DNA of 64,000 nucleotides, taken from positions 12,669 to 76,668 of the forward strand of contig JAUNSM010000001.1 in the NCBI GenBank assembly GCA_030539215.1, given 5' to 3'. The translations under genes were made by a program, and so were the position numbers. Positions 31,607 through 56,307 of this stretch are shown here, piece by piece; the stretch's first letter is position 1; every line of letters starts with the position of its first letter. Below the pieces are notes generated by a model. That model did no database searches. It was not told the origin of the DNA and saw only the letters and a list, made by a program, of their open reading frames with translations. The stretch comes from Clostridia bacterium (GTDB lineage Bacteria > Bacillota > Clostridia > TANB77 > CAG-508).

Positions 31607-31661
31607 ATTATATATAGTGAAATAGTATATATCAATTCCGTTTTTTTTCCGTTTTTTCTAT
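31607..31661 (-). promoter_or_regulatory. Element promoter motif copy A (29-nt motif + TTGATA-17-TATAAT)
   Basis: Minus strand: atagaaaaaacggaaaaaaaacggaaTTGATA, a 17-nt spacer, then TATAAT. The motif is identical to copy D. Confidence 0.7.
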
Positions 31662-31663
31662 GA

Positions 31664-32680
31664 TTATTGTTCTTCTTCTAAATCTTCATCAAAAAATAAT
31701 TCGCAATACTCTTTGTAAATTTCTTTATTTATATATAAATTTTTAAATTTTTCATCTAGTAGCTTATATTGTTTGTCTACATCATAATCAAATTTATATT
31801 TTTCTTTTGATATTTCTAAAAAAGCTTTTGCTTTATTATATTCCTCAATATCTTGTCCAGTTATTTGAACAAATGTATTATTTCTTTTTAAAAAGTCCTT
31901 GTCTTTGGACATTTTAACTAAATCTTCATGACATTCTACTATTTTTTTATTTTTTATAATTTCTCCTAACCTTACGATTTCATCAATTAATTTGTCATTT
32001 GGATAATCTTCTTTTAAAGAAACATATGCAGAATATTTACCACTTCCATCTGCTGCAAATTCATATTCTTGTAAAAAATATAATAAATCATTATTTCTAA
32101 TATTACTTTTCTGTTCTGATATAACATTTAAATATAACTTATATGATTGTTCTTTTGATTCATATAATTCTTTTTTAAAGTTTACGACTTCATATTCTTT
32201 TAATCCACTAATCTTCGTTATCTCTCTTTTGCTATATTTTTTAGCCTCATTTATATTAAAAGTATATCTATATGTTTTCATACCTATGTTTTTTAAATAT
32301 GCCATTGAATCTTTAAATTTAATAATATACTCTTTTTTTTCTTTTAAAATATTATTAATAATATCTTTATATTTATTATATACTGTGACATCATCACTAT
32401 TGCAAAGTTCATTATAATAGTTCTCTAATTCAATCATTTCATTGCCAAATTCTATTTTTCTCAGCTTGTGATTTCCCCATATATGAACTCCTCCCGTTAT
32501 TACATTTCCTACTAAACGAGCATATTTTTCTTCCCATGTGTTTAAATATGGATATATATCATATTTATTTTCAAAAATATAATTCCCCTCATTATCTGTG
32601 AAAGAACTATTTGCAATTTTAGCACTTATTCTGTTATTTGGTTTATCTAATTTTAAATCTTTTACTATGTCATAACTCAT
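31664..32680 (-). CDS. Hypothetical protein
   Basis: 338 aa. Ends DLEEEQ. Confidence 0.6.
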   Translation of the reverse strand: MSYDIVKDLKLDKPNNRISAKIANSSFTDNEGNYIFENKYDIYPYLNTWEEKYARLVGNVITGGVHIWGNHKLRKIEFGNEMIELENYYNELCNSDDVTVYNKYKDIINNILKEKKEYIIKFKDSMAYLKNIGMKTYRYTFNINEAKKYSKREITKISGLKEYEVVNFKKELYESKEQSYKLYLNVISEQKSNIRNNDLLYFLQEYEFAADGSGKYSAYVSLKEDYPNDKLIDEIVRLGEIIKNKKIVECHEDLVKMSKDKDFLKRNNTFVQITGQDIEEYNKAKAFLEISKEKYKFDYDVDKQYKLLDEKFKNLYINKEIYKEYCELFFDEDLEEEQ

Positions 32681-32694
32681 TTAATCACCCTCTA

Positions 32695-33108
32695 CTATAA
32701 TTCTTGATTTTCTTCATATTCTTGATATTGTATATCTAATTCTTTTGATAATAACTCTATCATTTCTCGGTTTTCATTATAAAAACATTTTGATTTTTCA
32801 ATCATAATTTTCTTTAACTCGTTCTTTGTTTTAATTTTTTCAATATCAATTTTTTCATATAGTACATTTTCAAAATCAACGTCATAATTTTTGCTACTAT
32901 GTATACTATATGTTAAACCAAACTCATTATCATATACCCCTAAATATGCACTAATACTTAGCATTTTATTTTCTACAACTGCTAAATCATAAGCTTTGTT
33001 ATAATCTAATTCATATATTTTCTTTTCTTTTAACTCTTTAAAAGTATGTCCGTTTTCAAAATTAAATTTATAATATTTGTTTGATTCATTTATTATATTA
33101 TTTCTCAT
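32695..33108 (-). CDS. Hypothetical protein
   Basis: 137 aa. Ends YEENQEL. Confidence 0.6.
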   Translation of the reverse strand: MRNNIINESNKYYKFNFENGHTFKELKEKKIYELDYNKAYDLAVVENKMLSISAYLGVYDNEFGLTYSIHSSKNYDVDFENVLYEKIDIEKIKTKNELKKIMIEKSKCFYNENREMIELLSKELDIQYQEYEENQEL

Positions 33109-33118
33109 TTTTCCTCCT

Positions 33119-33152
33119 AAAAAATAGTAAAGGTTTTTATTATCCCCTTACT
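33119..33152 (-). terminator. Hairpin terminator after the repeat surface protein gene
   Basis: agtaagg/cctttact stem followed by auuuuuu on the minus strand. Confidence 0.45.
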
Positions 33153-33163
33153 ATTATCTTTTT

Positions 33164-53617: not shown

Positions 53618-53633
53618 ATTTTCACCCTTTCCA

Positions 53634-54335
53634 TTAATTTCCAATACCAAAAATATAATTAGTTGGATTTGTATAATTGTTACTTCCTGAAGCTGTTCTT
53701 ATTTCAAAATGTAAATGAGAACCTGTAGACCATCCAGTAGATCCCATTTCTCCTAGAGTTTGTCCTTTTTCAACAATGTCACCAACTTTTACTGTTACAG
53801 TGTTGTCTTTCATGTGAGCATAAAATGAATATATTACACTTCCATCTTCTAAAAAATGTTGTACCTCTACAGCATTGCCATAAGAATTACTATTTAAAAC
53901 TTGTGAGACAATTCCACTTTCAACGGATATAATTCTTGGATTAATAATTGATATAACTACTAAATCTATACCTGTATGAAATTTTTTTGTGTTCTGTATT
54001 GGGTGGATTCTATAACCATATTTAGAAGTCATAACATCGCTATTTGGATTCCAAGTTTCAAAAGGCATAACAAATTTTGCATTTGCATATTTATATAAGT
54101 TTTCGTTTGGTATTATTTCGCTTATTGCTGTTCCAGTTCCTTGTGATACTACAGATGATGAATTTATTTCATCATCATTATCTATGCTTGTTAATGATGC
54201 TAATGCAATTACTGGAATAAGAATAATAAAAAATAAACCAATTATTATACCTAATACTATAATTTTAGCTTTAAATGATAAAAAGCTAAATACCATTGCA
54301 GTTAAATCTTTTGCTGTGTTTTCATTGCTACTCAT
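53634..54335 (-). CDS. M23-family peptidoglycan hydrolase (T4SS cell-wall hydrolase)
   Basis: N-terminal TM helix, then the HTGIDL and GSTGWSTGSHLHFEI zinc-binding motifs. Confidence 0.85.
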   Translation of the reverse strand: MSSNENTAKDLTAMVFSFLSFKAKIIVLGIIIGLFFIILIPVIALASLTSIDNDDEINSSSVVSQGTGTAISEIIPNENLYKYANAKFVMPFETWNPNSDVMTSKYGYRIHPIQNTKKFHTGIDLVVISIINPRIISVESGIVSQVLNSNSYGNAVEVQHFLEDGSVIYSFYAHMKDNTVTVKVGDIVEKGQTLGEMGSTGWSTGSHLHFEIRTASGSNNYTNPTNYIFGIGN

Positions 54336-56165
54336 TATCTACCACCACCTACTAAATATTCTTTTTCCCAAGCTAATGATTTAACATTAATAAGCATGTG
54401 TCCTGATCCAATAAATAACAACCCTCTTCCTTGCTCTTTTTGGCTTAAAATGCCTTTCTCGTCCGAATTAAGATTATATATTCGTACAATCTCTGCTAAA
54501 TCTTGTCCATCAGTTCCAAAGAAAAATTTGTATGTACTATTATCAAGCAATGCTTGTCCATATTGTTTTATTTCTGGAGCCAAGAAATCATTTAAATTTT
54601 GTGTAATTGTTATAAGACCACTTTCTCTTTTTCTACAACGTTTACAAAAATTTCTTAAAAACTCTATTCCTTGATGTGATTTAGATATAAGTAAATAAGC
54701 TTCATCACATACAACATATACTTTTTCATTTCTGTCCTTAAAAGCTAAATTTTCACACAATCTTAAAATATTCAAATATTGTGCTGCTTTCACATTTTTA
54801 TCTGCATTTTCTAATGCACTAATACTAAAACAGACAAAACTATTATCTATTTTAATGTTTGAATGTCCATTAAATATTTCACTACTCTCTCCTCTTGCCA
54901 TTCCTCTTACAATAGATCTTAATGTTTCTAGTTCTCCTTTATGTTCTATGCTATCTTTTGATTTCTTTTCTAAAATTTTGTATAAGTCTTCCATAATAGG
55001 AAATTCATTATTTTTTATGAGATTTATATCCGTATCCCAATCAATATTAAAGTTTTTATATAATTCTTCTATTGTTTCAGTTAGTATACTTATTTCTAAA
55101 GTTGTAGCTTCTGGAAAATAAAGTCTGAAAAATGTAGATAAAAAATTTAAATGTAATGCCAATGCCGATTTAGTTGATGTATACTCATCATCTTCTTCAC
55201 CATCTTCTTGTGTATTAGGTAAAGGATTAATTTGTAATGGATTAATTCTACCTACTTTTTCACCTTTTCCGACCTCCACAGTCAATCCATTTGCCGCCCT
55301 ACTTTTTTACATAATTCTATATACTCATCTTCTGGATCTAATACATACATTTTCGTTCCATTTAACCATTCATTTAACATTATTATTTTAGCTAAATATG
55401 ACTTTCCTGAACCAGAACTTCCAGCAATTACTATATTGTAATTTGGTCTATATATACTTTTAGTGAATGGAGATAAAACAATTATTTTTCCATTTTCATC
55501 AGTTCCAAGAAAATAACCTTTTACATCTACTAATCCACTTCCGACTAAAAGGAAGACCTAAAAATAATGTTTCTAATGACATATTTTTATTTGATATTTC
55601 TAATATTTCTTTGCTATACGTTGCAAAAGGGCTAGATTGTCTTAATGCTTGTTCTTGAAGAAAAGCTGGAACTCTTGCTTTTAAACCCATACCTGCTAAT
55701 TCATTTTTTACCATTCTGCATCCTTCAGCAAAATTATTATCAGTGTTTCCAGATGTTCTAGTTACAAAAGATAAATTTATATATGGAATGTTATTTACAG
55801 TAATATCTTTTATAATTTTTTCAGCAGAACGAATTTTAAATTCTGCTTGTGTTCTTAAAGCTTCATTATTAGTGTTATTATATATATTTTTATTTACTGT
55901 AATACCGTTTTGAAATTCCTTCTACATAAGCAGAGATGTCTTCAATAGGAGTTACAATTAAACTTACAGTTGTATTTCGCATTTCTTTTAAATTCATTAG
56001 CCATCCAACATTTACTGCTGATGGATAACCACTTATATATTGCAGCTTGTGAGTAATCTCTCCTAATTCTACTTTATTATTTTTTATTAAAATTCCTTGT
56101 GGGGTTATAAGATTTAATAAATCATAATTAATTGGAATTGTTTCCATTTCTTTTTGTTTCATCAT
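54335..56165 (-). CDS. virB4: VirB4-family conjugation ATPase; needs four +1 shifts at CGG (55907-05, 55543-41, 55296-94, 55271-69)
   Basis: The start (MMKQKE) follows aaggag. The pieces are track ORFs 55890..56267, 55499..55714 and 54335..55285, plus unlisted stretches. Applying the shifts gives one 608-aa protein. Junctions read ...EGISK-GITVN, ...GLPFS-GSGLVDVKGYF...IAGSSGSGKS (Walker A) and ...ELCKKVG-GKWIDCGG-GKGEKVGRINPLQINP. Confidence 0.85.
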
Positions 56166-56189
56166 ATTCTCCTTTTTATGCATATTTAA

Positions 56190-56231
56190 AAAGCAAAAAA
56201 ATAAAGAAGAAATACTATAATTTCTTCTTTG
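56190..56231 (-). terminator. Leader hairpin plus U-tract downstream of promoter copy F
   Basis: aaagaagaaau-uauagu-auuucuucuuu followed by auuuuuuu. Located between the promoter and the virB4 RBS. Confidence 0.65.
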
Positions 56232-56252
56232 TCGATAACTTTTCATATTATA

Positions 56253-56307
56253 ATTATATATGCACAAAAAAGCAGTTTCAATTCCGTTTTATTTCCCTTT
56301 TTTCTAT
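56253..56307 (-). promoter_or_regulatory. Element promoter motif copy F (TTGAAA-17-TATAAT)
   Basis: Minus strand: atagaaaaaagggaaataaaacggaaTTGAAA, a 17-nt spacer, then TATAAT. The motif overlaps the TAG stop of the upstream gene. Confidence 0.7.

Follow-up and report, generated by a model that had tools for sequence, protein, structure and literature searches.

Results

The 64,000-nucleotide stretch of DNA analysed here (the window) comes from a Clostridia bacterium (GenBank assembly GCA_030539215.1, contig JAUNSM010000001.1, positions 12,669 to 76,668 of the forward strand) and has a G+C content of approximately 25%. The host genes end with YebC (15503-16267). Beyond it, from about 16.4 kb up to the right edge of the window, every gene is on the minus strand, and Pfam scans show that together they make up a conjugative element. 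Its transfer genes encode a MobL relaxase, a coupling protein in three open reading frames (ORFs), TrbL, a type IV secretion system pilin, VirB4 fragments and an M23 peptidase. Other genes encode a sortase, a surface protein with SpaA repeats, ArdC (39498-40445, minus strand) and a radical-SAM protein (30618-31394, minus strand). Six copies of a 29-nt motif lie along this element, each joined to a promoter. Comparison with related sequences indicates that the motif-promoter is a reusable gene-control module common to many mobile elements of uncultured low-GC gut Clostridia.

The motif pattern, ATAGAAAAAASGGAAAWAAARMGGAATTG, matches the window exactly six times, always on the minus strand and with no mismatches, at 31633-31661 (copy A), 40631-40659 (B), 45160-45188 (C), 51235-51263 (D), 51377-51405 (E) and 56279-56307 (F). 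One hundred dinucleotide-preserving shuffles gave an expected count of 0.00, and the second-best 29-mer in the whole window has seven mismatches to the motif. The motif is therefore a discrete element and not part of a gradient of A-rich DNA. Copies A and D are identical in motif sequence, as are copies C, E and F. Within the motif is a direct repeat with a period of 11 bp, and its GGAA(A/T) units are helically phased. No copy was found in the core chromosome within the window (1-16.3 kb). These results agree with the sequence-only reading, a first interpretation made without database searches, which had located the six copies, their identities and the internal repeat and had seen none in the core chromosome. 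A generic A-rich repeat, which that reading had considered as its own undoing, is contradicted by the shuffles and by the distance of the next-best 29-mer.

The terminal TTG of each copy begins a -35 hexamer, and all six copies have a perfect TATAAT at -10 after a spacer of 17 nt (16 nt in copy E), as had been proposed. Copy A (TTGATA-17-TATAAT, 31607..31661, predicted start ~31600) lies 5' of the radical-SAM operon and copy B (TTGAAT-17-TATAAT, 40605..40659, predicted start ~40598) lies 5' of ardC. Copy C (TTGAAT-17-TATAAT, 45134..45188, predicted start ~45127) precedes the operon that runs from a 344-amino-acid ORF to the sortase, and copy F (TTGAAA-17-TATAAT, 56253..56307, predicted start ~56246) precedes virB4. 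The downstream genes assigned earlier by eye, namely radical SAM, ArdC, the sortase operon and the VirB4 fragments, were confirmed by Pfam. The remaining promoters belong to copies D (TTGATT-17-TATAAT, 51209..51263, predicted start ~51202) and E (TTGTAA-16-TATAAT, 51352..51405, predicted start ~51345). All are on the minus strand. A consensus promoter scan of this AT-rich window returned 124 matches with 130 expected. Since promoter-like matches are not enriched, the argument stands on conserved geometry and not on the consensus scan.

The TAG within the motif is the stop codon of the preceding 205-amino-acid ORF in copy F (56304-56307, minus strand) and in its orthologue L008 (L-numbers are our labels for external sequences). 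At copies A and B the stop of the preceding gene is 2-4 nt ahead of the motif. Genes and promoter are thus packed without a spacer.

A feature that the sequence-only reading had missed is a terminator after every copy, ahead of the downstream gene. A hairpin followed by a U-tract lies between each of the six promoters and the next ribosome-binding site. All six have the properties of intrinsic terminators (-8.8 to -23.9 kcal/mol, with 5-7 U in the tail), and they account for 6/10 minus-strand terminators predicted in the element. The copy A terminator (31551..31598, minus strand) is a 16-bp hairpin of -16.5 kcal/mol (folding z-score -5.4) followed by CUUUUUUAU, with its helix 3 nt from the predicted +1. 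That of copy B (40539..40593, minus strand) is a hairpin of -23.9 kcal/mol (z -7.6) followed by AUUUUUUUA. Copy C has a 14-bp hairpin followed by UAUUUUU (45085..45124, minus strand), which a consensus terminator scan also calls. At copy F (56194..56230, minus strand) the hairpin is followed by AUUUUUUUG, and an outer helix pairs the 5' A-run with a second U-run. Folding z-scores were -4.4 to -7.6 for the transcripts of copies A, B, C and F. Over all sources, 56/81 distinct motif promoters (69%) have a terminator within ~110 nt, against a background of 12% for random same-strand segments and 14% for regions upstream of other co-oriented ORFs. Orthologous hairpins, compared between copy F and L008 and between the D terminator and L029, differ in sequence but keep their structure.

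The exact motif pattern was found at 10 loci in metagenome-assembled genomes (MAGs) of uncultured gut Clostridia. A looser search pattern, which fixes 19 of the 29 positions, matched at least 118 loci in metagenome sequences; counts from this pattern apply among the matches listed. At least 83 instances outside the window have -35 and -10 elements at the correct distance, always in the same register, and their hosts are Clostridium, Clostridia or Clostridiaceae MAGs from human, mouse, rabbit and chicken guts. Matches in other phyla, among those listed, were without a promoter and are attributed to chance. All of the external instances with promoters (at least 83 among the matches listed) adjoin mobile-element genes. 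In one group, which belongs to related conjugative elements, the motif-promoter precedes the VirB4, ArdC, ParB and lipoprotein operons; these positions correspond by homology to copies F, B, a seventh copy described below and C, respectively. The commonest group has small ORFs and then large serine recombinases, the latter in 47 loci among the matches listed. In the third group an excisionase-like helix-turn-helix (HTH) protein precedes a tyrosine integrase, and a 135-amino-acid HTH protein and a MobV relaxase may or may not lie nearby. Because many instances stand before mobility or establishment genes of heterogeneous elements, the motif is not the private regulon of one element. The sequence-only reading had proposed an element-specific regulon; its description of co-oriented transcription units marked in a fixed -35 register, with the chromosomal flank left bare, stands, and the restriction to one element is contradicted by the external instances.

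Several other searches were carried out. A scan of viral contigs with the motif pattern gave one chance-like match lacking a proper -10, and a search of plasmids for near-identity with 44-57 kb of the window gave no match. Distant blastn matches of the F promoter to Bacillus cereus-group plasmids were rejected as a chance A-rich stretch on the wrong strand with no promoter geometry. Motif substrings sought in literature full text returned only unrelated primers. A reverse scan anchored on the 5' half of the motif was dominated by chance A/G-rich matches; 7/120 were real, all with the 3' half and four with one G-to-A change. In some promoters of serine-recombinase modules (L002, L004, L005 and L007) the palindrome GTTCACTTAGTGAAC or a near variant lies 20-50 nt 5' of the motif. 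Such a palindrome may act as an operator or mark where the upstream unit ends; none is present in the window.

To examine conservation, 91 instances with the core motif and a correctly spaced -10 were sorted into 31 promoter classes with spacer and leader less than 70% identical. The motif TTG forms the -35 in 31/31 classes, with TTGA in 29/31. The -10 profile is T31 A31 T30 A31 A27 T31, and the spacer is 17 nt nearly throughout. At its 5' end the motif has a sharp edge, with a flat profile giving way to the near-invariant TAG (T 27, A 28 and G 28 of 31). The order that follows is six A (28-31/31 each), G (29), GG, AAA, W, AAAA, N, GGAA and TTGA. Ten 5' positions were left free by the search, so conservation there carries no bias, unlike that of the 3' half, which the search fixed. 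In seven orthologous pairs between the window and its relatives, identity was 35% over the 19 nt ahead of the motif, 92% within the motif (79% at unfixed positions), 52% in the spacer, 100% in the -10, 71% in the first 14 nt downstream and 46% in the next 31 nt.

Numbering that assumes a 17-nt spacer and a start 7 nt past the -10 places T27 of the motif at -35. With these predicted starts the motif spans -61..-33 in all instances. The distal unit (A5-A10 with S11 G12 G13), AAAAAA(G/C)GG, occupies -57..-49, and the proximal unit (A16 to G24), A(A/T)AAAANGG, occupies -46..-38, exactly 11 bp away. The A-tracts are centred near -44 and -55. An unbiased sample is provided by the ArdC operon L129, since it was found through its protein (52% identity). 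This operon has no motif and possesses an extended -10, TGnTATAAT, instead.

Conservation also extends into the early transcribed region. The hexamer TAnn(A/G)T lies exactly 2 nt past TATAAT in 22/22 classes with a TAnnRT/A-run block, of which the representatives examined have a proximal terminator. It is absent from 9 classes without a proximal terminator. The composite downstream block has 46 occurrences, 42 of them with the motif, and is found 4 times in the window versus 0.24 expected in shuffles. The hexamer overlaps the predicted start (-4..+2) and may be mere start-site context or a sigma-dependent early pause signal. When transcripts were folded from the predicted +1 the helix began at nt 2-6, because the conserved A-run at +4..+8 pairs with the U-run; the exception is the motif-less L129 leader (nt 12, z -3.9). 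That leader (L129 5790-5890) keeps a TATAAT-ga-TAAAGT-AAAAAA block, a hairpin and a U-tract without the motif, suggesting that the promoter-then-terminator leader is older than the motif. Two other explanations of this region were rejected. A leaderless ORF beginning with an ATG at +1 is possible in only about half of the classes, where that ATG is present, and the second hexamer has no -35 at the right distance to make it an alternative -10.

Copies D and E, which the sequence-only reading had placed in a gene-poor region, are predicted to produce short terminated RNAs, and the next gene is separately promoted. The predicted E transcript (51262..51345, minus strand) is ~84 nt, structured and has CCCCC and CACCUCC motifs; its terminator stem (51292-51271, minus strand) abuts the D motif and no ORF comes after it. 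The predicted D transcript (51098..51202, minus strand) is ~105 nt and consists of a 5' hairpin, a single-stranded CUCUCCUUUC linker and a terminator stem (51128-51107). D and its L029 counterpart are identical at 27/31 positions from 15 to 45 past the -10. The same RNA pair is present in this related element (L029 2770-3025) with the order swapped. The C-rich stretches of both RNAs (CUCUCCUUUC; CCCCC and CACCUCC) are rare in the genome and resemble anti-Shine-Dalgarno sequences. Both transcripts have the appearance of small regulatory RNAs. A search for their targets by complementarity gave nothing above background.

Downstream of copy D on the minus strand is a cyclic di-GMP-I riboswitch (RF01051, 50881-50970, full length 1-87, 72.9 bits against a gathering score of 35). 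It is the only Rfam family found in the window; the leaders and the RNAs of copies D and E matched none. The riboswitch has its own promoter, TTGTGA-17-TATAAT (51007-50979, minus strand), and is followed by a 218-amino-acid ORF of the conjugative element with no Pfam family (50204-50860, minus strand). Since this ORF has its own promoter and riboswitch, D and E would drive only the ~105- and ~84-nt terminated RNAs.

A seventh copy was found on contig L124, which carries an identical relaxase and reaches 1.9 kb past the window end. This copy, gtgtgaaattaGGGAAATAAAACGGAATTG-17-TATAAT, is half-degenerate, keeping only the proximal unit (one and a half units in all), and is followed by a terminator. 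It adjoins the 5' side of an operon encoding ParB, a ribbon-helix-helix protein and the relaxase. The gene for a response regulator with a receiver domain only (L124 3-356) ends directly 5' of the seventh copy, with its N-terminus off the contig.

Frame changes split the coupling protein into three ORFs (60512-62554, minus strand) and VirB4 into three fragments (54335-56267, minus strand), and the coupling-protein split recurs in the independent assembly L124. Despite its intact promoters, the element may be in decay. Copy A is followed by ~22 tightly packed ORFs (16541-30639, minus strand, ~14 kb), nearly all without Pfam families; the exceptions are DpnD/PcfM-like proteins at 21176-22147 (weak, under the Pfam cutoff) and 22370-23284, and DUF7659 at 29691-30179. 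This region is partly conserved in the related locus L015. Between 45.2 and 51 kb lie genes for an AP2-like protein, a hexapeptide transferase, a Y-family polymerase with YolD, and an extracytoplasmic function (ECF) sigma factor with a DUF4179 protein. These proteins have no clear counterpart in the related elements sampled, where only weak partial matches at 27-32% identity were found.

Discussion

The geometry of the motif may point to the host RNA polymerase as its reader. We propose, with a probability of about 0.5, that the motif is an upstream (UP)-type element that recruits the polymerase alpha subunit's C-terminal domain (alpha-CTD), and that it forms the upstream half of a sigma-A-type cassette, a strong and factor-independent promoter. 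UP subsites are 11 bp each and bind one alpha-CTD per subsite, the proximal subsite has the consensus 5'-AAAAAARNR-3', and a proximal sequence moved to the distal position still functions (PMC4132738). AAAAAAGGG matches the proximal consensus at 9/9 positions and A(A/T)AAAA(C/G)GG matches it at 7-9/9. An A/T-rich element is present at about -40 to -60, directly 5' of the -35 and in fixed register, and both the subsite consensus and the 11-bp subsites were found. The motif units occupy what we take to be the canonical coordinates of E. coli UP subsites. In Helmann's compilation B. subtilis promoters reportedly have A-tracts at similar positions (~-44 and ~-55), and the plc promoter of C. perfringens has phased A-tracts at such positions.

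Under this proposal two alpha-CTDs of the host polymerase would dock on the two motif units, yielding a strong promoter without need of an element-encoded activator. Such factor-independent strength suits genes needed in a new host, namely those for anti-restriction, partition and relaxase functions, recombinases and transfer. The terminator hairpin would end the preceding transcription unit, attenuate the output of the strong promoter itself and cap mRNA that reads through at its 5' end. Regulators specific to one element, if they exist, would work through the variable spacer and flanks. At copies D and E the same promoter would serve two small terminated RNAs. The strict register favors the UP-type element, as an element that contacts polymerase needs it. 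So do the substitutable parts, with a seventh copy that has the proximal unit only and an ArdC operon (L129) that swaps the motif for an extended -10. The sequence-only reading had left the choice among a dimeric activator, a dimeric repressor and a dedicated UP element; the last fits best, and a regulator is rated lower.

Several observations weigh against an UP-type element. Minor-groove recognition of A-tracts by alpha-CTD does not call for GG pairs and a 5' TAG as invariant as those seen. In the variant GGGAATAAAAAGGGAATAAAAAGGGAATTG (L042) one recognition unit seems to occur three times, with the -35 itself as the third. The motif was encountered in mobile elements only, and the few strong-looking host promoters in the 1-16 kb flank are AT-rich upstream and free of the motif pattern. 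The core promoter is already near consensus, so that an UP element is not obviously required. Finally, in most relatives conservation at the 19/29 positions fixed by the search is partly ascertainment.

The alternative that survives best, which we regard as possible though less likely, is that the motif is the operator of a sequence-specific regulator. It would bind the tandem GGAA(A/T) repeats 11 bp apart, overlapping or abutting the -35. The regulator would be host-encoded or common to the elements and would switch the mobility genes of co-resident elements together; because the core promoter is already strong, a repressor is the likelier kind. Near-invariant G positions and TAG in 31 promoter classes, and the apparent restriction of the motif to mobile elements, are what an operator predicts. 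The half-sites are repeated and helically phased at 11 bp, and these direct repeats, including the triple GGGAAT variant of L042, are typical of tandem-binding winged-helix or AbrB-type proteins. Furthermore, a downstream block, AT(G/C/A)AAAAA(G), resembles the 5' part of the motif, TAGAAAAAAG, so regulator sites could bracket the promoter. The single strict -35 register of every instance is not required of a repressor, and of the two units the seventh copy has kept no more than one and a half.

A cognate protein was sought near the sites. Within 8 kb of the motif loci no candidate gene is common to motif-bearing elements, and clustering of ORFs across 85 motif-bearing sources gave no common family except recombinases. 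In one related integrative and conjugative element (ICE; L125 7782-9851) two proteins with two AbrB/MazE-type domains each, one also with a zinc ribbon, stand beside two divergently oriented XRE proteins next to the ParB motif-promoter. This group, which is a possible local regulatory module, argues for a regulator, as does the receiver-domain gene at the ParB motif-promoter of the window's own element. Against it, AbrB-like genes occur in this one relative only, and proteins of the L125 AbrB/MazE and XRE types were found nowhere else in the motif-bearing set. The sequence-only reading had nominated the AP2-domain protein (45226-45768) and the ECF sigma factor (49539-50054) as binders. Neither is conserved; both are cargo with no clear homologue in related ICEs that keep the motif, and neither nomination is supported.

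Other candidates were also rejected. For the 135-amino-acid HTH protein encoded after one promoter class, no Pfam family, plasmid homologue or similarity to Tn916 Orf7 was found, and the region upstream of Tn916 orf7 has no motif. An ECF-sigma promoter with GGAAT as its -35 would be at the wrong distance from any conserved -10. A sigma-H promoter is inconsistent with the 5-nt spacing between the AGGAAAT-like and GAAT sequences, which would have to be 12-14 nt.

Promoter-specified antitermination of the lambda Q type is a more doubtful alternative, and we consider it improbable. Here a motif-bound factor would board polymerase during an early pause that depends on sigma and is induced by the second -10-like hexamer, and only transcripts from motif promoters would pass the proximal and later terminators. 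Internal terminators together with processive antitermination are a known feature of Gram-positive conjugative elements (PMC8191782, PMC11658703, PMC8955417). The three parts co-occur at these promoters: a promoter DNA motif, TAnn(A/G)T 2 nt past TATAAT and a terminator within ~10-60 nt. The hexamer in all block classes and in none of the nine others, together with the frequent pairing of block and motif (42/46), is in keeping with this mechanism. Against it, the hexamer at -4..+2 is nearer the start than known pause elements, and it is partly explained by a pyrimidine(-1)/purine(+1) start context, as the A-run is by pairing with the U-run. The same downstream block is paired with a motif-less promoter in L129, and classes without terminators still have the motif. 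Pfam scans of 69 window ORFs detected no Q-, NusG/KOW-like, ConAn1 or other antiterminator domain. The ConAn1 processivity domain corresponds to Pfam pXO2-34, PF17362 (PMC8191782), and in conAn-type systems stands at the start of the conjugation operon; it was found in neither the window ORFs nor the ParB and receiver-domain proteins of L124.

Antitermination can be extended to a mobilome-wide switch, which we likewise view with considerable skepticism. A factor, host-encoded or common to the elements, would read the motif and modify the starting polymerase in the manner of Q-like antitermination. The second hexamer would assist, and only transcripts from motif promoters would pass the built-in terminator. 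If true, this switch would act within a single cell to coordinate genes for excision, anti-restriction and transfer across many unrelated elements.

The weakest alternative, that the copies are remnants of a miniature inverted-repeat transposable element (MITE)-like repeat or of a recombination site, origin of transfer (oriT) or single-strand origin with an incidental likeness to promoters, is very improbable: several copies are identical and in one orientation and many instances adjoin recombinase genes, but conservation ends sharply at the 29-mer and resumes only at promoter positions with flanks and spacer unrelated between classes, terminal inverted repeats and target duplications are absent, the motif serves internal ICE operons and also elements with serine and with tyrosine recombinases, and the promoter region cannot self-pair as single-strand promoters or origins do.

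If the UP-type element is correct, conjugative, mobilisable and serine-recombinase elements use one portable promoter module aimed at the host polymerase, placed ahead of establishment and movement genes in a major group of uncultured gut Clostridia. Mobility modules and the starts of transcription units in these MAGs could also be located with the motif as a simple tag, and the cassette is a candidate strong promoter, already paired with an attenuator, for use in the engineering of low-GC Clostridia. Conjugation operons of Gram-positive bacteria are already known to contain internal terminators; here each terminator has a promoter of its own just upstream. This promoter-before-terminator layout is unusual and may mean either that one hairpin acts at once as terminator, attenuator and 5' cap or that Gram-positive conjugative elements have a new route of antitermination.

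Among known systems, conAn of pLS20 and canT of Tn916 resemble this element in having a long co-oriented conjugation array in which intrinsic terminators insulate genes (PMC8191782, PMC11658703). They differ in that they have one main promoter and one nearby antiterminator RNA or protein, whereas here every terminator has its own promoter directly upstream and no ConAn1 domain was detected. The lambda PR'-QBE-tR' region, which includes the Q-binding element (QBE), likewise combines a strong promoter, a nearby DNA motif, an early -10-like element and a proximal terminator, and produces a short RNA unless read through. In contrast to lambda, no Q-like protein was found, the motif is 5' of the -35 and not between -35 and -10, the -10-like hexamer overlaps the start, and there are many copies per element. 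The 5' stabiliser stem-loops of Firmicute mRNAs such as ermC and aprE resemble the cassette hairpin in that its predicted helix is 2-6 nt from the transcript 5' end. Unlike those leaders the cassette hairpin has a U-tract and so is also a terminator, and stabilisation here is putative.

KorA and KorB of IncP plasmids provide a precedent for one short signal shared by numerous promoters within a conjugative element, those of transfer and partition genes among them, and a ParB-family gene heads one motif operon here. Kor operators, however, are palindromes at variable distances read by element-encoded repressors; the motif consists of direct repeats in a single fixed register, has no conserved cognate protein that we could find and is common to unrelated elements. 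Closer to hand, the C. perfringens plc promoter has phased A-tracts directly 5' of a clostridial sigma-A -35, reportedly acting via the alpha subunit. It is a single chromosomal promoter with three A5-6 tracts and lacks the GG spacers, the multi-copy family and the coupled terminator. UP elements of the rrnB P1 type share with the motif a location at -38 to -59, two 11-bp subsites and a fixed register with the core promoter. They differ from it in that their natural distal subsite is T-rich, whereas both motif subsites are of the proximal type; in the motif the GG and 5' TAG are near-invariant, and it is multi-copy and was seen only in mobile elements of one host group, not at rRNA or housekeeping promoters.

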